DNA of 64,000 nt, taken from positions 6,411-70,410 of the forward strand of contig JAUVLW010000001.1 of NCBI GenBank assembly GCA_030600555.1. Direction: 5' to 3'. Position 1 is the stretch's first letter. Every line of letters begins with the position of its first letter. The stretch comes from Candidatus Aenigmatarchaeota archaeon (GTDB lineage Archaea > Aenigmatarchaeota > Aenigmatarchaeia > QMZS01). The translations under genes and the position numbers were made by a program. Below, one piece after another: positions 387 through 60,717 of this stretch. The notes under the pieces are model-generated. The model was not told where the DNA came from. It worked only from the letters and a program-made list of their open reading frames with translations, and made no database searches.

Positions 387-574
387 GCTTCAGTAGCTCA
401 GCAGGTAGAGCATCTGGCTGTTAACCAGGAGGTCGAAGGTTCGAGGCAACCCTTTTCAAGGTAATTGTTGAAAAAGGTCTGCACCCCAAAAATGCTCATC
501 TTTAGATGGCACCCCTTTTTGCATCGCAAAAAGAAGGACTTAATTGGGGTGAAATGAAAATCCTTCCTGAAGCG
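387..574 (+). tRNA. tRNA-Asn (anticodon GTT) with ~115 nt intron inside the T-loop
   Basis: Read directly from sequence: acceptor GCTTCAG / CTGAAGC plus discriminator G; D-arm GCTC-AGCAGGTA-GAGC; anticodon arm TCTGG-CTGTTAA-CCAGG; variable loop AGGTC; T-stem GAAGG (435-439) / CCTTC (562-566). The T-loop TTCGA|..|AT is interrupted by 445..559. The region is GC-rich in an AT-rich background. Exons: 387..444 and 560..574. Confidence 0.75.
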
Positions 575-6402: not shown

Positions 6403-7593
6403 TTAACAAAAATCAAATATTCTTCTTTGGGTTAATAGTTTGCTTTTTTTATTGTATTCTTCAATAGGAAGTCTTAATTTTGCGTTTAAGAAATTGAACA
6501 GTTCATTTAAATTTGTAAATTTATCATAGTTTAGTTTGAAAGCATTTCTTATCCCTTCCCTGACTTCCCACACCCCAACAGGAATTTCATATCCTTCGTG
6601 AATTTCTCTTATCACAATTGCTCTTGCTTGCTTTTTCATTCTTAACAAACCCTCGGCAACAGCGAACCTTGCGGCGTAATAACCCCCGCTCTGTGAAATT
6701 GCGTATTTTTTCCTTCCTCCGCATCCTTCATGTTCTATAGTTACACTCGGTTCTTTTCCCTGAAGGTTCCATAAAGTACCCGGGAACCAGGATTCAAATT
6801 GTTCAAATTCCCAGTTTCCCGGAATCAGGATAATGTAATAATAGTTATCAAGATAATTGTTTGTGAATAAAAAATATTCATTAACAGAATCAAAGTCATT
6901 TATTTGTTTTATAAAATGTTTCCCTAACAAATCATCCATTGCTGTGATGCTCCATCTTGTTGGCACAATTTTCTTTTTTACCCCGAGAACCCCTGAACTC
7001 AGAATTTTTGAAATCTGTGAAACTTCAAATTTTGAGTTGTAGAATTCTATTGCGGCGTCATTTGCTTTCATTTCCCCGTCAATCAGACCATAAACTTTTT
7101 TTGTGATTTTAGGATTATCCACCAGTTTTATTTTATTTACTTCCCCGCTCGCTCCCATTGGCTGAGTGATTGTTGAGAATGATTGCAAGAATGAAGGTTT
7201 CTTTGAGAAATTGATTTCCAGGTCCACAGGTTTTATTGAAAGAGTTATGTCCTGCAACTCCTGAATATATCTGTCTTTTGTGAAAATATTTTTTTTCAAT
7301 TTACCCCTTACAAGAGAATATCTGTCTTTGACAATGCTGTTAAGATCCATACCGTACATTTTTTCAGGTGTATCTTGTCTTTCAAGATTGGACTCATTCA
7401 GTGAAATCATAGGTCCGACTAATAAATTAGGATATCCTTCATGACCAACAAAAACAGATTTTGGGGAAGGTCCAAACAAAGTTTCCTTGATTTTTGGGGT
7501 TGAGATTTTTTGGTAATATATTTTTGTCAGCAATGGGCATTTATCCCTCCCACACAATTTTCTTACTCCTTTGCAGATTAAACATAAGTTCAT
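6403..7593 (-). CDS. hypothetical protein with N-terminal Cys4 zinc-ribbon motif (possibly Nre-family DNA-repair-associated protein)
   Basis: N-terminus CLICKGVRKLCGRDKCP is a CxxC..C..C motif. ~396 aa. The Nre assignment is from memory only. Confidence 0.35.
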   Translation of the reverse strand: MNLCLICKGVRKLCGRDKCPLLTKIYYQKISTPKIKETLFGPSPKSVFVGHEGYPNLLVGPMISLNESNLERQDTPEKMYGMDLNSIVKDRYSLVRGKLKKNIFTKDRYIQELQDITLSIKPVDLEINFSKKPSFLQSFSTITQPMGASGEVNKIKLVDNPKITKKVYGLIDGEMKANDAAIEFYNSKFEVSQISKILSSGVLGVKKKIVPTRWSITAMDDLLGKHFIKQINDFDSVNEYFLFTNNYLDNYYYIILIPGNWEFEQFESWFPGTLWNLQGKEPSVTIEHEGCGGRKKYAISQSGGYYAARFAVAEGLLRMKKQARAIVIREIHEGYEIPVGVWEVREGIRNAFKLNYDKFTNLNELFNFLNAKLRLPIEEYNKKSKLLTQRRIFDFC

Positions 7594-31151: not shown

Positions 31152-33737
31152 CTATTTTACAATAACCCCTTCCGCAGAACTTAAATTAATTTCTCTGTAG
31201 ATAACAGGTCTCTCAGTTGAACTTAATATTTCACCCCTCCATTTTTCATCTGTTAACCTGTCGTCCATAGGCCATGCGAATTCATAGTAACTAAAAATTG
31301 GACCTACTGCAATTCCAATCCTTCCATCTTTTGCTTTATGCGCAACAACAATCCAGTCAACTTTTCCGGTTCCAACCTCAAGGACTTTCTTTGTATTTGA
31401 TTCTGTGTGAACATCCGCAATCATGCTTGTTTTAAAAGCCTCATCTTTTCCTTCAAGAACTGTTTTTTTAGTGCATTGTTTTCCAACAGGGCATCCTCCT
31501 GATTGTATTTCCAAAGCGGACGCAAGATTTTCAAGTATTGAATCAAATCTTGAATTAATAGATTTTATATAATCATAATCTTCTTCTGTTAAATTTTCCG
31601 CTTTCAGTTCTTTCTCGGAAATTATTCTCAATTTTTCCATCATTTCAGAACTTTGCTCAAGGGAACTTCGGACTTCGTCAGTTATAATCTCTTGTTCACC
31701 TAGTCCTTGTTTAAGGAAATCAATGGCGTATTTTGCTCTTGCAAATAATTCGGGGTTTGGTTCAACATAACCATAATATTTTGCTTCAATTGGATCTGGC
31801 ATTGAAGTGATTCCAAGTGCGGTTGCCCAAGTATAACTTTGCTTTACATACAAAATTGTGTCATGTCTTAATTCAGCCCAGCTTGACAAACTTGTAATTA
31901 AATCCTTTAATTTCCAGGTTTCATTTCTCATCCAGTTTGGATATCCTTCAGGTTTCTCTTTCAGAACCGGTTGTAACATCCAGAGCCAGGTATTATATAA
32001 ATTCTTTGTCCACATTTCTTCGGAGTATGAATCTATAAGGGTTCTTAGTTCATACTGTTTTTTATCATAACCGCAGTATCCATTATTATAATATTCATTT
32101 AGTGTCTGTTCTGCTTTTTTAGAACCCAGAATATTTATAACATCCAATCCTGTTGGCATAAATCTGCACACAGAATATAATTGAGATTCATTTAATCCCC
32201 CGCAAAATCCGGCGGTATGCATTTCCAATGCTTTGCTGCAGACTTCATTCCAGTACTTTGTGCGGTCTTCATCCATATAAGTGCATGTGGTATAGAATCC
32301 TTTTGGTTTTGAAAGTTTTGAATAAGTTGATTCGCAGTCCAGAACTTTTTGGTAATACGGCGATTTTACATTAGGTCCAACATTTTTGTAAACCAAATCC
32401 CCAAGTATTTGAGAATCAATTGCGTATCTTTGCCCGATTAATCTTAAACCCTGCGTCAGTTCTTTTAGGTTTCCTGCAAGGTCGATTTCAAATCCCCCGA
32501 GAATTTTCGGACCTTCTGAGTTATTTAGTTCTTTCTGTATTTTTTTTGCGACATTTACTGTAAGAGTCATTTCTTCATCAAATTCATAACCATAAACTTT
32601 TTTTATAGCTTCGTCATAATCATAAAAAGTAAAGTCATCCGATACTCCGGCAAAGAAACTTGTTATTGAATATATCTTGTTGTAGATTTCTGAAGCCGGA
32701 TAAATTTTTCCTTCAAATTTAACTTCTGCTGATTTTACTGCATCGGTCAATAGAATTGCCTGTTTTGTCCAACCATCCCCTCTTGTTTTAAAAGTAATTC
32801 TTCCAAGCCACATCATTGATTTGAAATATTGTTTTAGTCCTTCTGAACTCGTGTAATGACCTCTTGGAACATATTGCGAATAATCTTCACAGTAACATTC
32901 TCTTGTGCAGATTTCACTGTAAAATTCAACAGAGTCCCATTCTTTTCCCTGATAAAATATTTTTCCGCCTTTTATCTCCTGGCTGCATTTTTCATTTTCC
33001 CATTTAGGAAAAGCGAGCCTTAAGCATTCATCTGGGCAGTCTTTACTCATGATTTCAGATTTGAAAAATCCTTCATGCTTTTCTATTCTATCAAGTTCTT
33101 TGTTCACATCATCTGCGACAAAATAAGTGACTACATAATTAGGGTCGAGCAGTTTCATTGCAACGCTCAGGTAAGCAATATTTCTTTTTGAAAGTTCTTT
33201 TAGTTCTCCATCTTCAAACCCATTGTATTGCCTCATGGATTCTTTTATCAAAGATTTTAAAAATTCTTTTAACATTGGGGATAATTTTTTAATTTCAAGA
33301 TTCTTGAGAATCTCATTAAATTCAAGGTGGAATAAATGCAATATTGAATCTGAGGTTATAAATACAGGTATGTCTTTTTGGTTGAGGTTTAAATAAGCAT
33401 GTTCAAATCGGTCATATTCAGTTCCAGATAAAATTATGGCTCCATTATTTAGTAAAGTCTGTATTTGTTCTTCGCTTAGATTATTTCCAAATCTTTCAAC
33501 TAAATCTCTTTGGTAATTTTCCGGCAATTCTGTTAAAGGCAATTCATATTCGGAATTGTTATAAGTTTCAGGCGTATATTCATAATCTGACAGGAACATT
33601 GAAAGTCTTGGTTGTGGGATTGCGCCTGAGGAATAAACCGATTCTTTTTCACCCAGCACCGTCGGAGGGTTTGTGTAATAAAAAACTGTATAAATCGCCA
33701 CCAGAATAACTAAGGTGATTATAATTAGTTTTTTCAT
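31152..33737 (-). CDS. large secreted/extracytoplasmic protein, Cys-rich, unknown function
   Basis: 861 aa with an N-terminal signal/anchor helix and many Cys. No catalytic motif recognised. Confidence 0.5.
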   Translation of the reverse strand: MKKLIIITLVILVAIYTVFYYTNPPTVLGEKESVYSSGAIPQPRLSMFLSDYEYTPETYNNSEYELPLTELPENYQRDLVERFGNNLSEEQIQTLLNNGAIILSGTEYDRFEHAYLNLNQKDIPVFITSDSILHLFHLEFNEILKNLEIKKLSPMLKEFLKSLIKESMRQYNGFEDGELKELSKRNIAYLSVAMKLLDPNYVVTYFVADDVNKELDRIEKHEGFFKSEIMSKDCPDECLRLAFPKWENEKCSQEIKGGKIFYQGKEWDSVEFYSEICTRECYCEDYSQYVPRGHYTSSEGLKQYFKSMMWLGRITFKTRGDGWTKQAILLTDAVKSAEVKFEGKIYPASEIYNKIYSITSFFAGVSDDFTFYDYDEAIKKVYGYEFDEEMTLTVNVAKKIQKELNNSEGPKILGGFEIDLAGNLKELTQGLRLIGQRYAIDSQILGDLVYKNVGPNVKSPYYQKVLDCESTYSKLSKPKGFYTTCTYMDEDRTKYWNEVCSKALEMHTAGFCGGLNESQLYSVCRFMPTGLDVINILGSKKAEQTLNEYYNNGYCGYDKKQYELRTLIDSYSEEMWTKNLYNTWLWMLQPVLKEKPEGYPNWMRNETWKLKDLITSLSSWAELRHDTILYVKQSYTWATALGITSMPDPIEAKYYGYVEPNPELFARAKYAIDFLKQGLGEQEIITDEVRSSLEQSSEMMEKLRIISEKELKAENLTEEDYDYIKSINSRFDSILENLASALEIQSGGCPVGKQCTKKTVLEGKDEAFKTSMIADVHTESNTKKVLEVGTGKVDWIVVAHKAKDGRIGIAVGPIFSYYEFAWPMDDRLTDEKWRGEILSSTERPVIYREINLSSAEGVIVK

Positions 33738-40585: not shown

Positions 40586-42373
40586 ATGAATCTAAAAAAA
40601 TTGCAGGAATTCCTCGGTTCTGGCAAGGATTTGGGTGAATTGCCCGATTATTTTTCAATAATTGTTGATGAGAGAAAATTTGAGTTTAAAAGAACCCCCA
40701 AAAAGCCCCAAAAACTGGTAAAATACCCAAGAGACAAATTAATGGAAGAAATAAAATGGCCTCAGAATGCGGGAACCTATGATATTGGGGATGTTGCAAA
40801 TCCGGTTATGTTAATCTGCCCTTCTCAGGACAGGGAATTGCAGGAACATGCAATTTATGCGGGAGTTTGCGCAACAGGACCTTGTTTAACCCCGAGAGGA
40901 GTTGAACTCCTGATAACAAACACAATCTCAAACCCAAACATAAGGTTTTTAATTCTTGCGGGAAGAGATTCCGGGCATTTAACCGGTGATTTAATTGAAA
41001 ATTTAATACTGAACGGGGTTGATGAAAACAGAAAGGTAATAGGCTCAAAGTGCCCTTCTTTCCCTTATCTCCCAAACCTGAGTCTGGAAGCAATAAATAG
41101 ATTTAGGGAACAGCTGGAAGTTATAGATTTGATTGGGGTTTTTGATTCCACCCTGATAACTTTAATAATTAGGCTTTGTTTGCAGGAACCGATTAATGCT
41201 TATGAATTGACCTATGAAGAAAAACCTTCATCTCTCTTTAAACAAATTGAGGACCCTAAGAAAATCACTCACATCTTATTTGATAAAGGTGCTGTGAGCA
41301 AAGAACCCATGGTCTTATCTTATTCTTTAGTGGATTTGCAGTCCCTTCCTTACGAAGCATTTTCAACAACAGGAACCACGGTTTACGCTTCCACTGTTGA
41401 GGAAGCCCACAAAATACTTGTTGACTTTTTAAAAAGAGCGGGGGTGTGGGTAAAACAGGAGAGCAATAGGATGGGTCTGGATGTAATCGCAACAACAATT
41501 GTTGTGGAAAATCTTGAGCAGGGTCTTTACCCAAAAAATTACAAACCTGTGGAATGGGTTGATTCTGATGAAAAAATGAAACAATATTTGAAAGCTTATG
41601 GTGTGTGGAATTACTTAGTTCCCTGGAGCAATGTTGTGTTTGATGAAAATCTTGAGAAGACAGTTCCTTCAATTCCGGACATGAAATATTTATCTTATTC
41701 TTACGGAACGAGGATTACCGCAAAGGGAATGGATTCCTGCAAAAAAGAAGAGAGGGGAGGAATTATTAAATTGGTGAAATCTTTCCAGGAAAAACATTAT
41801 GAAAAAGTTCCTAATTTTAAATCAATCCTAAATTTTTATCATGATTTGGAAAGTGTTCAAAAACAAAGTTTTAATCAGTTGCTGGCAATTACCAAAGCAT
41901 GTTCGATTATTGTTAAGGATAATATTACCGGGACTTACAGACCTTACCTGCAGTTGCACGTTGCGGATGATTTAAAACCAATTGACCCAAGAAAAATGCA
42001 TAATCCATGTTATTGCATGTTTGTTCCGTTTTTCAGGAAAACTTATTATAGGGAATATAATAAGGATGGAATTACTCGCAGGTTTTTAGTTCCTTCTTTG
42101 AGCGTGGAGAAAGAAACAGATTTGAAATATGATTGGTTGTTTATGCCATCGGCTTATTTGAGAGCCCATGACTGGTTTGCTTTTCCCGCAAATGTCCACG
42201 GGTCTTTAGCTATGGGGAATTTTATATTGCAGAATATTGAACAGGAGACCGGGAAGAAAATTCCCTGGGGTTGTTATTCACATCATGCTTCGTCATTGCA
42301 TCTTGTTGATTATTCTTTTGATAAAAATATGCTTGAAAAACTTAACCGAACTTTACCTTCAGACAAACATTGA
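40586..42373 (+). CDS. large fusion protein with thymidylate-synthase-like C-terminal domain
   Basis: C-terminal HNPCYCMFV (compare ThyA PCH), DWLFMPSAYLRAHDWFAFPANVHGSLAMGNF (compare DVFLGLPFNIASYALL) and CYSHHASSLHLVDY (compare GDTHLY). The N-terminal ~350 aa are of unknown family. Confidence 0.4.
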   Translation: MNLKKLQEFLGSGKDLGELPDYFSIIVDERKFEFKRTPKKPQKLVKYPRDKLMEEIKWPQNAGTYDIGDVANPVMLICPSQDRELQEHAIYAGVCATGPCLTPRGVELLITNTISNPNIRFLILAGRDSGHLTGDLIENLILNGVDENRKVIGSKCPSFPYLPNLSLEAINRFREQLEVIDLIGVFDSTLITLIIRLCLQEPINAYELTYEEKPSSLFKQIEDPKKITHILFDKGAVSKEPMVLSYSLVDLQSLPYEAFSTTGTTVYASTVEEAHKILVDFLKRAGVWVKQESNRMGLDVIATTIVVENLEQGLYPKNYKPVEWVDSDEKMKQYLKAYGVWNYLVPWSNVVFDENLEKTVPSIPDMKYLSYSYGTRITAKGMDSCKKEERGGIIKLVKSFQEKHYEKVPNFKSILNFYHDLESVQKQSFNQLLAITKACSIIVKDNITGTYRPYLQLHVADDLKPIDPRKMHNPCYCMFVPFFRKTYYREYNKDGITRRFLVPSLSVEKETDLKYDWLFMPSAYLRAHDWFAFPANVHGSLAMGNFILQNIEQETGKKIPWGCYSHHASSLHLVDYSFDKNMLEKLNRTLPSDKH

Positions 42374-45509: not shown

Positions 45510-46463
45510 TTATGCGCGGGAAGATGGTTTAAGCAGTTGTTTGTAAAAGGATATGTTGATTGTTTCCCCCTCAATATCTTCAATATATCTTGTTATGTCA
45601 TCCAGATAATTTTGGATGGTTTTATTATTAATCTGCGAGATAAGATTATTTATTTTTTTGAAGTCACTATCTTTTGTCTTTTCAAAAATTTTAGATGTTT
45701 TATGGATGAGATGACTTATAGTTCCGTTAAGTTTATATTTAATAAATGTTAAAATTTCTTTTTTGTTTTCAAAACAGGTTTCATGTTTATTTAAATATTC
45801 TCCGAGTCTGTAAAGATCATCTCCAATATTCTCTAATTTCTTGCTTATCAAAAAATATGAAGGAATCAACGATGTATTTTTTATTTTTGATGAATGCAGA
45901 ATCTTTGAATCTGTAAGCGATAATGAAATAAGTTTTGTCCCCAGATGATATAATCTGTCAATTTCATTTTCATTTATTCTTATTTCTTCAATATCTATTT
46001 CATTTAAAATGTTTGAAAGAGATAATTCAAGTATGGTATTTATCCGGTAAAATATTTGGTAAATGGTGACTTTTGATTCGTCCAGCAGTATTTTTAGGGT
46101 AATCTTTTTATTGTCTTCATAGGTTATTTCAGTCCCGCTCATATGCGCCAGAGTTTTTCTGATTTTTGTTTTGACTTCTTTTGTCAACTCTTTTTTGGAA
46201 TATAGATTGATATTTTCAATTCCAAGGTAATATAATACAAATACAATCTGGTCGATATTATTGAGGTATTCATCAATATTCAGGGAAATCTCATCCATTT
46301 TTTTTCTTTTGATTAAATGAGAAGACAAGAGCAATGTTTGGTTATCTTTTTCATAAATCAATAGTTCATCTTTTTCTTTTAATTTATTCTTTTTAACCCA
46401 TTCCTTTGGCAATGAAATGGAATAAGTGCTGCCCGCAATCAATTGTATTTTTCTCCTGTGCAT
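45510..46463 (-). CDS. phoU: phosphate uptake regulator, AbrB/SpoVT N-terminal domain fused to PhoU-like domain
   Basis: The N-terminal RKIQLIAGSTYSISLPKEWVKKNKLKEKDEL is a swapped-hairpin AbrB/MazE-like domain. The rest is a helical PhoU-like repeat region. Divergent from pstS. Confidence 0.6.
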   Translation of the reverse strand: MHRRKIQLIAGSTYSISLPKEWVKKNKLKEKDELLIYEKDNQTLLLSSHLIKRKKMDEISLNIDEYLNNIDQIVFVLYYLGIENINLYSKKELTKEVKTKIRKTLAHMSGTEITYEDNKKITLKILLDESKVTIYQIFYRINTILELSLSNILNEIDIEEIRINENEIDRLYHLGTKLISLSLTDSKILHSSKIKNTSLIPSYFLISKKLENIGDDLYRLGEYLNKHETCFENKKEILTFIKYKLNGTISHLIHKTSKIFEKTKDSDFKKINNLISQINNKTIQNYLDDITRYIEDIEGETINISFYKQLLKPSSRA

Positions 46464-49287: not shown

Positions 49288-50049
49288 ATGAAAGAGAAAG
49301 TAAAGATAGGGTTTAAAGATATGGGTTTTTGGTATGGCAGTAAACAGATTTTGTCTGAGGTTAATCTAAAGTTTTATTCAAAAAAGATTACCGCGTTGAT
49401 TGGTCCTTCGGGATGCGGAAAATCCACATTGATTCGGTGCATCAACAGGATGAATGATTTAGTTCCAACTGCGAAAATTGACGGCAGGATAATCTACAAT
49501 AATGAAGATATTTACGGAAAAAATGCGGATGTTATTGAACTAAGGAAAAAAATCGGGATGGTGTTTCAAAAGCCAAATCCTTTTCCCATGTCTATATTTG
49601 AGAATGTTGCGTATGGTTTGAGAATACAAAATATGAAGGATAAAAATGAGATTGCCCGGATTGTTAAAAAAAGTTTGGAGAAAGCGGATTTGTGGAATGA
49701 AGTCAAAGACTGTTTAAGTCGTTCAGCTTTTGGACTTTCCGGGGGTCAGCAACAAAGATTGTGCATTGCAAGGACTTTGGCAAATGACCCCGAGGTTGTT
49801 TTGCTTGATGAACCCTGCTCATCTTTGGATCCAATTGCCACAGCAAAAATAGAAGTTTTATTAAAAAAAATAAAACGCGAAAAAACCATTATTATTGTTA
49901 CGCACAATATGCAGCAGGCAAAAAGAATCTCGGATTATTCCTGCTATTTGCTGAATGGAAAAATTATTGAATATTCAAAAACAGAAAATATGTTTACTCA
50001 CCCGAAAAACAAATTAACAAAAGATTATCTTGATGGGCGGTTTGGTTGA
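49288..50049 (+). CDS. pstB: phosphate ABC transporter ATP-binding protein PstB
   Basis: Walker A GPSGCGKST, ABC signature LSGGQQQRL, and Walker B LLDEP. Confidence 0.9.
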   Translation: MKEKVKIGFKDMGFWYGSKQILSEVNLKFYSKKITALIGPSGCGKSTLIRCINRMNDLVPTAKIDGRIIYNNEDIYGKNADVIELRKKIGMVFQKPNPFPMSIFENVAYGLRIQNMKDKNEIARIVKKSLEKADLWNEVKDCLSRSAFGLSGGQQQRLCIARTLANDPEVVLLDEPCSSLDPIATAKIEVLLKKIKREKTIIIVTHNMQQAKRISDYSCYLLNGKIIEYSKTENMFTHPKNKLTKDYLDGRFG

Positions 50050-50672
50050 GTTTATTTTCTAAATATTCTGAGGCTCTGCTTCAATCGGGTATTATAAATT
50101 TATTTTTAGTGGTAAAGATTATGTCTGAATTAATTGTATTTTGCAATCCCCGGCAGGTTTATGCGGGGAAATTAGAACTGGATATTGCCAGAGAGTACAC
50201 TAAAATGGCTATTGATGACTATGATAAACTAATCTCTTTTGATGAAAAATACCTGCCTTTTGTTGAAACTCCTGATTATGAATTTTGCATTGGGAAAAAA
50301 GGCAGTAGAAATTTATTATTAAATTTGTTTGCGCAACAACCAATGACAAGGGTTGGGGATGTTTATGAGAATTTTAAATCATCAAGTTATCTTTTCAATC
50401 CGGAATCAAAAGAAGAATTGTGTTTGCCTGATTTGGATGTTGTTCAAATAGAAGGAGATTATCAGGTTCGGGATGCCGCAAAAACCATTAAACAATTTTA
50501 TGAAAGTTTTGGGTGGGAGGCTTACATTTTTGATGGTCAAATTGAGGAGAGGATTGTGGTAAATCCAATTTCTGATAGATATGATGGGCCTATTGAAATA
50601 ATACCCCCGGGAATTCTTCGAGAGATTGCGGAAGAAACTGTTGGATATGATGTTGAGGGGTTGTGTTTTTAA
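50046..50672 (+). CDS. hypothetical protein translationally coupled to pstB (not PhoU-like)
   Basis: ATGA overlap with the pstB stop. 208 aa with no recognisable family. Confidence 0.4.
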   Translation: MSLFSKYSEALLQSGIINLFLVVKIMSELIVFCNPRQVYAGKLELDIAREYTKMAIDDYDKLISFDEKYLPFVETPDYEFCIGKKGSRNLLLNLFAQQPMTRVGDVYENFKSSSYLFNPESKEELCLPDLDVVQIEGDYQVRDAAKTIKQFYESFGWEAYIFDGQIEERIVVNPISDRYDGPIEIIPPGILREIAEETVGYDVEGLCF

Positions 50673-50706: not shown

Positions 50707-51540
50707 TTAGGAATTCGTAATATTTCCACTCGTCCAATTTTTTGGTTCTCTATTCTCTTGAGCAGTTAAACTAATAAAAAGTAATTTTTTAGTATTATCA
50801 AAAACGTGCTTTAGATTCTCATCTTCCAATTCTTTTTGTGGGACAAAGGCTTTCATAAATTCAAATATTTTAAGGAAAACTTCTAGTAGAATATTGTTAC
50901 TGAAACAAATAGTCCACATAAACTCCCGATAATTATATTCATTATAAGCTTTTGTCCATACAAATGTTTTTCCTTCAATATCAATCACATCTTCTTTATG
51001 GAAGTAAGGATGTACAAATTGACAAAGATATTTATAGTCATTGTAATCCTTTTTAATATGTTTAACTAAGTTGAATAGGGAATATCTTGCCAATTTCTTT
51101 TTATTACCATTACTACGTGCTTTGAGATAATCTTTTAATTTTTCAGGTTCACCTAAAAAATACTCGAGTTGTACCCCCCTCTCAAAATTAGACCTCAGTA
51201 AAGAATTTGCTTCTATATAACTACCTTGGATAATTAGGTCTTGTATAACTTTAGAAGTCTTTAACAGTCTATTGAAAAGAGACTGAATAAATAATACCAG
51301 ATTAGAATCCAGTTTTTTTGTCATATTTGGAATGTCGGCAACACAAACTAAAAACACCCAATTAATTAAATCTCTATTTTCCGTGGTAATCTCAAGTAAT
51401 TTGTAGTAATCTTTAAATGTGCTCTTTTTTACATCATACCCACAATTTTCATAGATAATATCCCAAGTCCTATTATTTAATTTCTTTTTCAATAAAAAAG
51501 GATTCTTTTTATTAAATTCGAGATTAAATCTCTTTGGCAT
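50707..51540 (-). CDS. hypothetical protein (cassette gene C)
   Basis: 277 aa ORF. Confidence 0.4.
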   Translation of the reverse strand: MPKRFNLEFNKKNPFLLKKKLNNRTWDIIYENCGYDVKKSTFKDYYKLLEITTENRDLINWVFLVCVADIPNMTKKLDSNLVLFIQSLFNRLLKTSKVIQDLIIQGSYIEANSLLRSNFERGVQLEYFLGEPEKLKDYLKARSNGNKKKLARYSLFNLVKHIKKDYNDYKYLCQFVHPYFHKEDVIDIEGKTFVWTKAYNEYNYREFMWTICFSNNILLEVFLKIFEFMKAFVPQKELEDENLKHVFDNTKKLLFISLTAQENREPKNWTSGNITNS

Positions 51541-51634
51541 GATAAATCTCTATTTGTTTTAATATAAATAAATCATACTACAATTTTAAATGTTGCAAAG
51601 GAGTTTCGGTTTTTAGATGTAGTATAAAAATCTC

Positions 51635-52615
51635 TTAAAAAACAGTATATTTATGTTCTTTGTAATTTAAATAACTCTTGATAATAGAAAGGATAAGAAG
51701 AATATAAGCCATGGTCGAATCTGTTTTGATGGTCCATCTTTCTTTTAATTTTGCATCAACTCCGTGTGCTTTTCCCATAGAACGAATATTTCCAAGTGCC
51801 GATGAAATATTATTTAATTTGGTTGGGAATTCTTCATATTTATTTAATTCATTTGAAATTTGGACTATTCCTGAGCATTTTTTTAGGTTTATATTATTTG
51901 CTAAATCAATTCTAAGGAAATCTTCTAAAGCTCTTCCTGCATCATTAATTGCTTCTTCATTTTTCTTATTTAATTTGGTTATTGCCGTTGCTAAATCATC
52001 CAAGACATCTTCAGAAATCTTACTGAATAATTCTCCAAACTCTTCTCTTAAAAATTTATTTGCGAGTAATTTATTATCTATAGATTTCTCAAGTGCATAT
52101 ACTGTTTCGTTCTTTGAAATTTTTTGTTTTATGTCTATTTTGAGATAAGTAATCCATTCATTAAAAATCTTAATAATTATTTTTTCGTTCTGATCTAAAT
52201 TATATATAGATTTTAGTATCTTTGCACTTTTGTCAGGATTTTGGCCAACAGAAATAAAATAAGAATATTCTATAAATTTTTTATCTTTAATCAAAAAACT
52301 TTTAATTATCTGTTCTGCACCACTGATTTGACCACTCAACTTTTGCATTAATTCTTTTTTTAAAATAAATCCTTCATTTTTGGATATAATAATTTCTTTT
52401 TCTTTTAAGAAATCCAAAGATTTGGTGATATAAGAATCTGTTTTGTTAACAAATAATCTAATTTCTTTTTCGTTACAAACCTTTTTTCTCTTTGTGCATT
52501 CATAGACATAAATTATAATTTCTGCTGTTAATTTAATTGGAGGATTTAGAATTTTTGTCATTTTATTCATCTTTTTTTGATAATTTTTTTTTGATAAGGC
52601 TGAGAGTTGCATCAA
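51635..52615 (-). CDS. hypothetical protein with N-terminal wHTH-like region and C-terminal candidate HEPN (Rx5H) motif (cassette gene B)
   Basis: ..ALGNIRSMGKAHGVD.. lies ~49 aa from the C-terminus (around 51782). The N-terminal ~70 aa resemble a winged helix. Confidence 0.35.
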   Translation of the reverse strand: MMQLSALSKKNYQKKMNKMTKILNPPIKLTAEIIIYVYECTKRKKVCNEKEIRLFVNKTDSYITKSLDFLKEKEIIISKNEGFILKKELMQKLSGQISGAEQIIKSFLIKDKKFIEYSYFISVGQNPDKSAKILKSIYNLDQNEKIIIKIFNEWITYLKIDIKQKISKNETVYALEKSIDNKLLANKFLREEFGELFSKISEDVLDDLATAITKLNKKNEEAINDAGRALEDFLRIDLANNINLKKCSGIVQISNELNKYEEFPTKLNNISSALGNIRSMGKAHGVDAKLKERWTIKTDSTMAYILLILSIIKSYLNYKEHKYTVF

Positions 52616-53267
52616 CTAAGGTTAAATGGTCTTTTTCCATAATTTCAATTGTTTGGTTGATATTTGGTCCTCTAATATGAATAAAATAATTCTCTGATGT
52701 TGTTTTTAGGTCTATTTTTGGAAGGGTTTGATCGGACTCTAAGTTTTTTTCTAGATTATTAATAAGTTTAGATTGTTCTTCTTTTGAACATTCTTTGGGT
52801 TCGTGGTTGAATGTGTTATCTTGATTAAGTATACCTATCATTTTTGCACCTTCGATAAAGAATTTCCCAACTCTAGACGCATATCTTTCATCTACCTCAA
52901 ATTCTTTGATTAAAACTTTATCTAGTATTTTAATAGGTAATTCTGAATTTTTATATTTATCAAATATCTCTTGAAACAAAGGTGCTTTGAAAAATGCTTT
53001 TTTCAATTGTATTTTTTTTTCTTGATCATTATATGCCAATTTATAATCTTTATATAATGGAGATATTGATAAAGTTCCTTTCTTGACATTAATTAAACCG
53101 AATTTTTTAGTAGCGGTAATCCTATCTACAAAACCTCCACTAAGTTTTTTCCCTAATTGTGAAGCACAGGTTTCTTTATTGCAATCTCCACCTAATTTAT
53201 CCACAACGACCGCTAGATCCATAGCAGACCTGAATGATGTTTTTGGATAGTTAACAATTCTTGGCAT
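52563..53267 (-). CDS. hypothetical protein (cassette gene A)
   Basis: 234 aa. The N-terminal ~70 aa may be helix-turn-helix-like. Confidence 0.4.
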   Translation of the reverse strand: MPRIVNYPKTSFRSAMDLAVVVDKLGGDCNKETCASQLGKKLSGGFVDRITATKKFGLINVKKGTLSISPLYKDYKLAYNDQEKKIQLKKAFFKAPLFQEIFDKYKNSELPIKILDKVLIKEFEVDERYASRVGKFFIEGAKMIGILNQDNTFNHEPKECSKEEQSKLINNLEKNLESDQTLPKIDLKTTSENYFIHIRGPNINQTIEIMEKDHLTLVDATLSLIKKKLSKKDE

Positions 53268-53685
53268 TCATATCACCTTATAATTTATTATACTAAAAAA
53301 CTTTATATACTTACTATATTTAGTTATGTATTTTAGTTCTTGAAGTCATAATAGGATTTTTTTCTATATATATTCTGTTTTGTAGATATTTATTATTTTA
53401 TCTCAAATCTAAAATTATGCGGACACAGACGTTTTCTTAAAATGTAAAAAATTGGTTAATAGGGATAAGAACCTTTTGTACTTTGAGTAATGAAAAAATA
53501 TGGACAAAAACGCACAAAATAGGCTGAAGTTACTTAGATTAACGGGATAATTAAGTTCAAAGAAGTATTTTCCTAATTAGACAATCCATTTTATCACAGA
53601 TCACATCATGATTACTTTGTATAAGATTATCTTATTTTAAATTCTAATCACAATCCCCAAATAAATCAAACCCTCTTGATTAATT

Positions 53686-54198
53686 ATGAACCAAGAACTG
53701 GAAATAAGAAGCTTCATCTCAAAGGAACAATATGAAAAACTCTTAAACTTTTTCAGAAAAAATACCAAACTGATTAAAGAGGATTATCAGGAAACATTTT
53801 ATTTTGATTCCAAAGAGGATTTGAGAATACAGAAAAACAATTTTTATTCAAAAATCTGGATGAAGAAAGGCAACTTCCATGATGAATGCAGGGATGAATT
53901 TGAAATAAAATTCAGCAGGGATGAATTTGAAAATCTTGAAAACCTGTTTGTTGGTTTGGGATATAATGTGGAAATAAAATGGTTCAGAAAAAGATATGAA
54001 TTTGAGTGGAATAAAACCAAAGTGTGTCTGGATTTCACAAAAGGATACGGTTATATAATTGAACTGGAGAAAATGTGTTCCACCGAAGAAAAACACACAA
54101 TGAAAATTCTTGAGGAATTAAAACAAAACCTAAAATCCCTCAACATCAACCCAAAAGAAGAATTCAAGAAGAAATTCGAGTATTATAAAGAAAATTGA
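53686..54198 (+). CDS. CYTH-domain protein (CyaB/thiamine-triphosphatase-like)
   Basis: N-terminal ELEIRSF (an ExExK/R-type motif), a ~170 aa size, and an acidic/basic alternating pattern. Confidence 0.55.
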   Translation: MNQELEIRSFISKEQYEKLLNFFRKNTKLIKEDYQETFYFDSKEDLRIQKNNFYSKIWMKKGNFHDECRDEFEIKFSRDEFENLENLFVGLGYNVEIKWFRKRYEFEWNKTKVCLDFTKGYGYIIELEKMCSTEEKHTMKILEELKQNLKSLNINPKEEFKKKFEYYKEN

Positions 54199-59154: not shown

Positions 59155-60717
59155 ATGGTTTTTGGAAAAGAAGAGCTAATTGTGCCAGATACTTCAGTAT
59201 TAATATCAAAGAAACTTACTGAATTAATTGACAACGGACAACTGAAAAAAGTAAAAGTTCTTGTTCCTGAATTTGTTATTGATGAACTTCAGGCTCAGGC
59301 AAACAAAGGCAAAGAAATCGGTTTTCTGGGTTTGGAAGAAATTAAGGAATTAAGGAAACGAAATGTAAAACTTGAATTTGTGGGAAGGAAGCCGACAATA
59401 GACGAAATAAAACTCGCAAAGAAAGGAAGAATTGACGCATTAATAAGAGAACTCGCTCAGAAACACAAAGCAACTTTATACACAAGGGATTTTGTGCAGG
59501 CGCTTGTTGCGGAAGTTTTTGGCGTAAAAGTAAAATTCATTAAAACCCCGCATAAAAAAGCGGATCTTAAATTTTTAAAATTGCTCACAAAAGATACAAT
59601 GTCCCTGCATTTTAAAGTGAATTGCGTCCCTCTGGCAAAAAGGGGACACCCTGGAAAATGGGACTTAAAAAAAGTCGGGAAAGAAAAACTTTCAAAGTCA
59701 AAATTTGAGCAACTTGCATCCAGCATACTCAAAGAGATTAGAGGAAAGAATTTTGCTTTTGTTGAGTTTGAAGAATATGGGGCTATGGTTTTGCAGATAA
59801 GGGATATGAGAATCTCAATTACAAGACCCCCATTTTCAGACGCGGAGGAGATAACAATTGTGCGACCAATAGCGAAATTGGGCATTGATGATTATGAACT
59901 TTCAGAGAAACTTAAAAAGAGAATAACTGACGAAGCCGGAGGAATTCTTATTTCTGGGCCTCCTGGAAGCGGCAAATCAACTCTGGCCGCGAGTCTTGCT
60001 GAATTTTATCAGAAGCAGGATAAGATTGTAAAGACAATGGAACAGCCGAGGGATTTGCAGGTAAATGAAAAAATAACCCAGTACGCTCCGTTGGCAAAAT
60101 CATTCGCAAAGACCGCGGAAATATTATTATTGGTCAGACCTGATTACACAATTTTCGATGAGATAAGAACCTCTTTTGACTTTAAGATTTTTAGTGATTT
60201 AAGGCTTGCAGGCGTTGGGATGGTTGGGGTGATTCATGCTTCCAAACCAATTGATTCAATCCAGAGATTTGTTAACAAAGTTGAACTTGGGATGCTCCAT
60301 AATATCGTGGATACAATAATTTTTGTGAAGGACGGTAAAATAGAAGAAGTTTATTCCACGGATTTAATAGTGAGGGTTCCCACAGGAATGAGGGATTCTG
60401 ATCTTGCAAGACCTTTAATGGAAATCAGGTCATTTGAAACCGGAAAACTTGAGTATGAAATTTATTCTTTCGGAGACGAAACCATTGTTATTCCAATTGA
60501 AGAGTTTGATGAAAAAGAAGTGGAAAAAAAAATCAAGCAAATAAAAAAAGAAATCAGCAAGTATGATAAAAATGCTGTAATAGAACATACTTCAGGAACT
60601 GATTTCAGGGTTTATGTTAATAAAAAAATAATTGCTAAATTAATCGGTCGCGGGGGGAAAGGTATTGATAAGCTGGAAACTAAACTTAAGGCTCATCTTG
60701 ATATTCTTGAACGGTAA
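59155..60717 (+). CDS. PIN domain + PhoH/PilT-like ATPase + KH domain protein (COG1855-type)
   Basis: N-terminal LIVPDTSVLIS (PIN), Walker A ISGPPGSGKSTLA, and C-terminal IIAKLIGRGGKGIDKL (KH GXXG). Confidence 0.65.
   Translation: MVFGKEELIVPDTSVLISKKLTELIDNGQLKKVKVLVPEFVIDELQAQANKGKEIGFLGLEEIKELRKRNVKLEFVGRKPTIDEIKLAKKGRIDALIRELAQKHKATLYTRDFVQALVAEVFGVKVKFIKTPHKKADLKFLKLLTKDTMSLHFKVNCVPLAKRGHPGKWDLKKVGKEKLSKSKFEQLASSILKEIRGKNFAFVEFEEYGAMVLQIRDMRISITRPPFSDAEEITIVRPIAKLGIDDYELSEKLKKRITDEAGGILISGPPGSGKSTLAASLAEFYQKQDKIVKTMEQPRDLQVNEKITQYAPLAKSFAKTAEILLLVRPDYTIFDEIRTSFDFKIFSDLRLAGVGMVGVIHASKPIDSIQRFVNKVELGMLHNIVDTIIFVKDGKIEEVYSTDLIVRVPTGMRDSDLARPLMEIRSFETGKLEYEIYSFGDETIVIPIEEFDEKEVEKKIKQIKKEISKYDKNAVIEHTSGTDFRVYVNKKIIAKLIGRGGKGIDKLETKLKAHLDILER

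Follow-up and report, generated by a model that had tools for sequence, protein, structure and literature searches.

A translationally coupled wHTH-HEPN gene pair in an Aenigmatarchaeota genome is a candidate mobile toxin-antitoxin or abortive-infection-like module

HEPN ribonucleases (RNases) are the effectors of many toxin-antitoxin, abortive infection (Abi), and CRISPR-associated systems, and their active sites form across a dimer. HEPN domains are defined by an Rx4-6H motif, usually with a polar residue following the Arg, together with a second conserved position, an acidic one, that forms part of an Ex3[KR] motif (Anantharaman et al. 2013, PMC3710099). In the RnlA-RnlB and LsoA-LsoB systems, which function in anti-phage defence, the HEPN toxin is held inactive by a protein antitoxin. 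The standard type II toxin-antitoxin layout consists of an upstream antitoxin with an N-terminal DNA-binding part and a C-terminal neutralising part (PMC3710099, and in part general knowledge). DPANN archaea and bacteria of the Candidate Phyla Radiation (CPR) carry few recognised defence systems and seemingly favour compact modules (PMC12988326). Here, we describe a pair of genes, A and B, located on contig JAUVLW010000001.1 (assembly GCA_030600555.1) of a Candidatus Aenigmatarchaeota archaeon, within the 64,000-nt stretch from position 6,411 to 70,410 that is referred to as the window. The predicted product of B combines an N-terminal winged helix-turn-helix (wHTH) with a C-terminal HEPN domain, and A, encoded directly upstream, is a paralogue of the N-terminal half of B. 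Based on the features below, we consider it somewhat probable (about 0.6) that A-B is an uncharacterised, horizontally mobile two-gene module of the toxin-antitoxin or Abi-like kind.

A preliminary description of this DNA, made from the letters and a list of open reading frames (ORFs), had reported that B ends with a peptide fitting the Rx4-6H signature. The peptide, ALGNIRSMGKAHG, was found in B as described, and its Rx5H motif is located ∼40 residues ahead of the C-terminus rather than at the very end. In an alignment of 54 close homologues, R260, G263, A265, H266, and G267 are invariant, as is a G-x-A-x-E-D-x-L-R block upstream that includes E213, D214, L216, and R217, and no other part of the protein is as conserved as the Rx5H region. 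Among 111 distant relatives, which share the consensus RNxAxHG, H266 never varies, and conservation reaches at least 90% at R260, E213, and L216. The residue following the motif Arg is the polar Ser or Asn, and the acidic residue of Ex3[KR] is supplied by EDFLR. A lack of conservation among homologues had been named beforehand as a finding that would refute the earlier reading; the motif is instead invariant in the close set and retained in the distant one.

Structure prediction is consistent with this assignment. The AlphaFold2 model of full-length B (mean pLDDT 92.4) places a wHTH at residues 1-70, then a middle domain made of helices and a C-terminal domain that is likewise helical. Since a Foldseek search of the whole model against the PDB returned only wHTH regulators (MarR, DtxR, and MntR; probability 0.9-0.99, E about 0.2), the C-terminal domain was modelled alone. 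Residues 148-308 yielded a confident model (pLDDT 93, pTM 0.90) that is predicted to form an all-alpha, up-down helical bundle like that of solved HEPN domains. The top 27 PDB matches to this model are all HEPN proteins, including HepT/MNT-HEPN toxins, the sacsin HEPN domain, TT1696, LsoA, RnlA, and Csm6, with RnlA and LsoA aligning at a TMq of 0.58-0.63 (RnlA at 0.60-0.63) and a root-mean-square deviation of 4-5 Å. The winged helix with which B was earlier said to open is likewise seen in the model, as three consecutive helices followed by a beta hairpin. In addition to the MarR, DtxR, and MntR matches, it is recognised by the Pfam family HrcA_DNA-bdg in five of 32 B homologues (best E 1.4e-7), and a search of whole B against the viral structures of BFVD gave local wHTH matches only.

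The sequence relationships of B to catalogued HEPN families are distant. DUF4145 (PF13643), a recognised HEPN family, is matched by nine of the 111 distant relatives (best E 1.1e-4), and neither B nor its 31 close homologues match it in Pfam. We therefore consider B to be related to DUF4145 without being a member by the Pfam criterion. The Abi_C family (PF14355) is matched by one of 32 homologues at an E of 0.093 and appears as a weak precomputed annotation on one distant relative (P0088); B itself gives no Abi_C match in Pfam and is not a member of that family. Profile searches of A, B, and the neighbouring gene C against PDB sequences returned nothing informative. In PADLOC-DB v2.0.0, B and C are without a match, and A shows only a chance-level similarity to REase_II (E 0.029). 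Taken together, the motifs and models indicate that B is a wHTH-HEPN protein whose predicted C-terminal HEPN domain retains intact Rx5H and Ex3R motifs.

The N-terminal part of A resembles that of B. The preliminary description had noted an HTH- or wHTH-like segment at the start of A, and profile comparison extends this to homology with the N-terminal half of B. A matches positions of about 7-175 of a wide hidden Markov model (HMM) of the B family with E-values down to 8e-10, a result given by none of 300 shuffled controls, and an hhalign comparison of alignment A5 with alignment A2 gave an E of 1.4e-3. Both families also weakly match the Pfam domain AAA_assoc_C, which is found in five of 15 A members. 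By these comparisons, A is a paralogue of the wHTH-like and helical regions of B that is without the HEPN domain. Beyond its N-terminal part, A consists of a variable, low-complexity linker that could not be aligned, followed by a conserved C-terminal segment of ∼40 residues. Within this mini-domain, positions Y194, I198, G200, P201, V218, and K228 vary little or not at all in alignment A5. The C-termini of distant A-like partners show, as judged by eye, the same hydrophobic pattern followed by a basic tail. The mini-domain is the candidate for a HEPN-neutralising or oligomerisation element.

The two genes meet in a tight junction. Homologues of B begin at the equivalent of M19, and the true start of B is most likely M16 or M19, which would give a product of about 308-311 aa. 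The ATG of M16 (gATGAATAAaATG) sits over the stop codon of A with an overlap of 8 nt (junction ATGAATAA), such that the end of A reads GAT GAA TAA and the overlapping start of B reads ATG AAT AAA ATG. M19 is located 1 nt past the stop codon of A, and either start would create a classic translational-coupling junction. The earlier suggestion that A and B overlap or abut and are cotranscribed thus agrees with the start/stop arrangement, and it is extended by the inheritance of the two genes as a unit.

A word-seeded search of 5.8 billion proteins identified 58 B homologues (clusters) of ∼306-313 aa. For A, word-seeded searching found only six close homologues. The B homologues that bear names belong to Woesearchaeota, which include the closest ones, to Aenigmarchaeota, and to one Daviesbacteria (CPR) genome. 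With a profile of the HEPN domain, 289 representatives (E ≤ 1e-3) were found in 1.84 billion proteins, with few exceptions 300-350 aa in length and with the domain at the C-terminus. The family is rare and its occurrence is patchy, covering Woesearchaeota, Nanohaloarchaea, Aenigmarchaeota, Halobacteriota, CPR bacteria, and one Gammaproteobacteria metagenome-assembled genome (MAG). A tblastn search of B and C against cultured phage genomes gave no match, and one against plasmids gave a single distant, haloarchaeal B-like match.

The gene neighbourhoods of B homologues were surveyed on contigs from JGI, ENA, and NCBI. Wherever a locus includes about 700 nt or more of upstream DNA, a homologue of A overlaps or abuts that of B, which amounts to more than 15 distinct loci once duplicates are removed. 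These loci derive from Woesearchaeota, a Methanomicrobia MAG, Nanohaloarchaea, Natronoarchaeum, Daviesbacteria, Shapirobacteria, and the Gammaproteobacteria MAG, and in them the A homologue is directly upstream of B, with gene calls that overlap by 14-26 nt. An A homologue is missing at contig ends and on one contig that appears to be chimeric (L019 1-1485), where an N-terminally truncated B homologue is preceded by a high-GC, tape-measure-like ORF; this contig is probably a chimeric metagenome assembly and not a genuine A-less locus. Distant clades retain an A-like partner of the same layout, which in some cases is located 3′ of B (L048 1973-2701, L043 3632-4863, and L050 5073-5777). One such downstream partner reaches the Pfam family DUF5343 (28.6 bits, cut-off 27), for which our literature search found no publication. 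A-B is a translationally coupled, co-inherited pair.

The genes that flank A-B are unrelated from one locus to the next, for example DapB and ThrRS, PolD and eIF2β, an amylase and an acetyltransferase, or GluRS. On a caudovirus contig from IMG/VR (L024 4202-5921; L036 is the same locus), an HK97-gp10-like gene and a gp17 tail-completion gene flank A-B, with the prohead protease, major capsid, connector, and head-completion genes lying upstream; this is a typical moron position. On one Woesearchaeota contig, A-B is followed by an N6/N4 DNA methyltransferase, TrbC, and VirB4/TraC-like genes of a type IV secretion system, and in Natronoarchaeum a tyrosine integrase is encoded 2 kb away. A distant pair is followed on its 3′ side by a DUF6615-like gene (L047 2447-3310, E 4e-4) and then by an HTH_3 and Peptidase_M78 (ImmA/IrrE-type) pair, which is another accessory or mobile-element context. 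In the window, A and B have a GC content of 25-29%, compared with 33% for the window as a whole. A-B behaves like a mobile conflict module, with varied flanks, a caudovirus moron, and secretion-system, methyltransferase, and integrase neighbours. It displays the adjacency, predicted cotranscription, co-inheritance, and mobility by which type II toxin-antitoxin systems are recognised. Of the resemblance to abortive-infection or toxin-antitoxin-like defence cassettes that had been proposed for this region, the part that concerns A-B as a mobile conflict-type pair stands; gene C and the spacer upstream of A are no part of it.

Our current hypothesis for A-B builds on what these loci show, namely the domain make-up of the two proteins, the conserved motifs, the coupling of the genes, and their joint inheritance and mobility. 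B would be the effector, its HEPN domain with Rx5H and Ex3R being predicted to act as a metal-independent endoribonuclease that, as in other HEPN RNases, would need HEPN-HEPN dimerisation for activity. The wHTH and helical domains of B could supply nucleic-acid binding or oligomerisation. A would be translated first from the shared transcript and would most likely bind B through the paralogous N-terminal domains, the mini-domain, or both, holding the RNase inactive, and it may also repress the operon through its own wHTH. Infection or the loss of A would then free B, leading to RNA cleavage and a stop in growth. Because A duplicates the N-terminal half of B, an unproven idea is that A-B heteromers block productive HEPN pairing. 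We put forward only tentatively, and regard as rather doubtful in its specifics, that A is a "decoy-paralogue" antitoxin whose heteromers with B keep two HEPN domains unpaired, while the mini-domain caps the HEPN face. If true, this would be a control of HEPN activity distinct from AMPylation (MntA), RnlB/Dmd-type binding, and cyclic oligoadenylate (cOA)-CARF activation, in a compact immune or addiction module common to episymbiotic DPANN, CPR bacteria, haloarchaea, and their viruses.

Several observations weigh against a toxin-antitoxin or Abi-like module. Scans of Pfam, NCBIfam, PADLOC, and PHROGs gave nothing significant for A or B. Every Foldseek E-value for the C-terminal domain of B is weak (0.3-2), and for this reason our call of the HEPN fold rests on the uniform match list and the two motifs. 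We infer the role of A solely from its position and paralogy, and its profile retrieved nothing from the PDB. RNase activity, toxicity, neutralisation by A, and a role in defence are all predictions. Both proteins are far larger than those of classical type II systems. On a megaplasmid of Haladaptatus sp. QDMS2 (NZ_CP119793.1, L046 4009-6942), a distant B-like gene with 23% identity is not accompanied by an A-like gene and is preceded by a helicase. Lastly, many DPANN and CPR copies of A-B stand among housekeeping genes, and another HEPN module is known to be unusually conserved in housekeeping contexts in DPANN (Makarova et al., PMC6393860).

The housekeeping surroundings would suit a pair of paralogous wHTH transcription regulators acting on host genes, with the HEPN domain of B as a non-catalytic sensor of ligand or RNA. 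The wHTH-type N-terminal domains on both proteins fit such a role, and the mannitol repressor MtlR provides a precedent for a non-catalytic HEPN domain (PMC3710099). Non-catalytic HEPN domains, however, typically lose Rx4-6H (PMC3710099), whereas the Arg and His of this motif and the Glu of Ex3R show complete or at least 90% conservation across ∼160 aligned relatives. Moreover, the neighbours vary at every A-B locus, so there is no conserved regulon beside the pair, and an insertion between phage head and tail genes is ill-suited to a host regulator. We consider a regulatory pair to be quite unlikely.

The Haladaptatus locus and the distant clades bear on a different division of labour, in which A-B is a single-purpose, Abi-like sensor-effector of nucleic acids and A is a co-sensor or adaptor that activates B, for instance upon recognition of invading DNA through the two wHTH modules. 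In HEPN Abi proteins, the RNase is commonly coupled to N-terminal sensor domains that vary (PMC3710099), and the order of B followed by an A-like gene in some distant clades is atypical of antitoxin-first operons. The helicase that takes the place of A in Haladaptatus is a 630-aa protein of the wHTH-ResIII/XPB type, with ArdC and Orc1/Cdc6 genes nearby, and may be an alternative partner for the B effector family. In the clade of the window, by contrast, A is always upstream of and translationally coupled to B, which is the antitoxin-first layout. An activating role for A seems less likely to us, and we favour A as the putative neutraliser of B.

The preliminary description had grouped A and B with a third gene, C, into one cassette. 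We found the three ORFs at the coordinates given there, co-oriented on the minus strand and convergent with pstS-pstC-pstA-pstB and a 208-aa ORF on the plus strand. C reaches the Pfam family DUF5677 (PF18928; 34.3 bits, cut-off 27.1), with residues 85-153 aligned to profile positions 4-74 of 166, and its homologues (P0065-P0067) bear a precomputed annotation of the same name. DUF5677 is enriched beside serine recombinases in defence-rich contigs of Bacillota, a point in favour of a three-gene defence system with C as the third component, and in the same study a DUF5677 gene tested in Enterococcus faecalis was not among the genes reported as protective (bioRxiv 10.1101/2025.10.07.681051); this is the only publication on DUF5677 that our literature search found. 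The co-orientation and adjacency of A, B, and C and their shared GC content of 25-29% also fit a cassette. The other evidence points the other way. B and C are separated by an AT-rich gap of 94 nt with a TATA-like element ahead of the ATG of C. It is the A-B pair that recurs in other genomes, and C adjoins it in the genome of the window only (L023 is the same locus), with no C homologue at the other A-B loci. The homologues P0066 (70% identity) and P0067 (40%) are solitary, without A or B nearby, and have NurA/EamA or SRP54/Metallophos genes as neighbours. Thus the possibility raised earlier that these genes might be found apart as housekeeping genes in relatives applies to C, which stands alone among such genes, while A and B are kept together. 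C was also tried as a cryptic HEPN protein, which was rejected, as hhalign against the C-terminal domain of B gave a probability of 0.06%; this absence of profile similarity is a further point against a joint system. A three-gene cassette is consequently very unlikely. C is an independent, adjacent gene outside the A-B module and may be a second, independent accessory gene. For annotation purposes, "wHTH-HEPN domain protein" is a suitable name for B, and the DUF5677 neighbour should not be tied to A-B.

The spacer between A and the divergent CYTH-domain gene had been described as unusually long and AT-rich. Among the 75 gaps of the window, whose median length is 54 bp, it is indeed the longest, with others of comparable size (399, 377, and 364 bp), and its GC content of 24.2% is near the mean of 25.1% for gaps of at least 100 bp, so it is not unusually AT-rich. 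The spacer matches no Rfam family, whether gathering or relaxed thresholds are applied, its predicted folding is not better than that of shuffled sequence (z = +1.55), and it contains no meaningful repeats or ORFs; a noncoding RNA, a repeat, or a mobile-element boundary at this position was rejected on these results. In addition, no direct or inverted repeats delimit the flanks of the A-B-C region. A Shine-Dalgarno-like AGGTGA is located 7 nt ahead of the ATG of A, with a TATA-like tatataaa ∼40 nt upstream, and scans for sigma-70 promoters and terminators were uninformative, as expected for an archaeon. The spacer is an ordinary divergent promoter region shared with the CYTH-domain gene. The latter contains a perfect 18-nt direct repeat (53888-53905 and 53915-53932, spaced 27 nt) that encodes a duplicated RDEFE peptide.

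Table 1. Coordinates of the A-B locus, its predicted domains and motifs, and the adjoining gene and spacer
Feature	Positions	Strand	Description and basis
Gene A	52563-53267	-	234 aa; putative antitoxin/regulator partner of B; ORF list, homologues, neighbourhoods
C-terminal mini-domain of A, NYFIHIRGPNINQTIEIMEKDHLTLVDATLSLIKKKLSK	52575-52691	-	conserved in alignment A5
Gene B, longest ORF	51635-52615	-	326 aa from TTG at 52615
Gene B, probable extent	51635-52570	-	start M16 (52570) or M19 (52561); predicted wHTH, helical domain, and HEPN
N-terminal wHTH of B (predicted)	52352-52561	-	residues 1-70 counted from M19; model, Foldseek, HrcA_DNA-bdg
C-terminal HEPN domain of B (predicted)	51638-52114	-	residues about 150-308; domain model, Foldseek, DUF4145 in relatives
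EDFLR, Ex3[KR] motif of HEPN domain	51911-51925	-	conservation in 54 close and 111 distant homologues
RSMGKAH, Rx5H predicted catalytic motif of HEPN domain	51764-51784	-	conservation in 54 close and 111 distant homologues
Gene C	50707-51540	-	277 aa; DUF5677
Spacer between gene A and CYTH-domain gene	53268-53685		418 bp; divergent promoter region

The window has a GC content of 33% and a coding share of ∼90%, against which the three genes of Table 1 are GC-poor; the pst genes are at 35-41%. Its gene content is archaeal, with Dph2, AMMECR1, an MtrA-like protein, and a PIN-ATPase, and the archaeal assignment also draws on the closest B homologues, which are from Woesearchaeota. Beside the pst genes, the 208-aa ORF (50046-50672, +) overlaps the stop codon of pstB by 4 nt, in the slot usually taken by phoU, and has no match in Pfam, NCBIfam, PADLOC, or PHROGs. 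Divergent from pstS, the gene at 45510-46463 (-) encodes a protein in which a PhoU domain is fused to an N-terminal domain of the AbrB/MazE type and which probably regulates phosphate uptake in this archaeon. Other genes of the window encode a protein of 520 aa that joins an N-terminal PIN nuclease domain to a T2SSE/AAA-type ATPase (59155-60717, +), one of 595 aa that contains an MtrA (methyltransferase subunit A) domain (40586-42373, +), and an 861-aa DUF3160 protein (31152-33737, -). Rfam reports a tRNA at 394-455 (+) with 38.7 bits over model positions 8-63 only, and ARAGORN finds no tRNA in the entire window; the match could represent a fragment, or an archaeal tRNA that is atypical, split, or interrupted by an intron.

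By sequence, the families nearest to A-B are the HEPN proteins of the DUF4145 (PF13643) and AbiJ/Abi_C (PF14355) type (PMC3710099). They share with B an all-alpha C-terminal HEPN domain, an Ex3[KR] motif in the first helix, an Rx4-6H motif of the R[NS]x3-4HG type, variable N-terminal fusions (with HTH listed for DUF4145), and an occurrence in mobile and defence contexts. Unlike their members, B and its close relatives fall below the Pfam models and the B clade has the Rx5H spacing; the combination of a wHTH with a helical module and the obligatory paralogous partner A are not described there.

By fold and logic, A-B is closest to HepT-MntA and RnlA-RnlB/LsoA. HepT-MntA (HEPN-MNT, type II/VII; PDB 5yep, 7bxo, 7ae6) has the same order of an upstream, presumed neutraliser and a downstream HEPN RNase toxin, and its toxins are the top structural matches of the C-terminal domain of B, with weak E-values. 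It differs in that A is not a nucleotidyltransferase, so neutralisation of the AMPylation type is not expected, and in that B has 150 extra residues of wHTH and helical domain. The toxins of RnlA-RnlB and LsoA-LsoB (PDB 6y2p, 4i8o, 5hy3) are, like B, multi-domain proteins, of 300-360 aa, with a C-terminal HEPN RNase, and they give the best TM-scores to the C-terminal domain of B. Their N-terminal domains are not wHTH, their antitoxin gene is downstream and unrelated to A, and sequence similarity is not detectable. In partner architecture and lineage preference, the nearest system is AbiEi-AbiEii (type IV toxin-antitoxin/Abi; PMC12988326), a compact pair whose upstream protein carries a wHTH at its N-terminus and a neutralising domain at its C-terminus, and which is favoured in small-genome DPANN and Patescibacteria, lineages that also hold A-B. 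The AbiEii toxin, however, is a nucleotidyltransferase and not a HEPN RNase, and A has no significant match to AbiEi.

The HEPN toxin module is therefore of a known kind, and the wHTH-HEPN family with its paralogous partner is uncatalogued in Pfam, NCBIfam, PADLOC, and PHROGs; no publication that describes it was found in our literature search. A-B would add a new family to the known compact immune and addiction modules, one shared by DPANN, CPR bacteria, haloarchaea, and a tailed virus, and a partner that is paralogous to the toxin's own N-terminal half points to a possibly new way of restraining a HEPN RNase.

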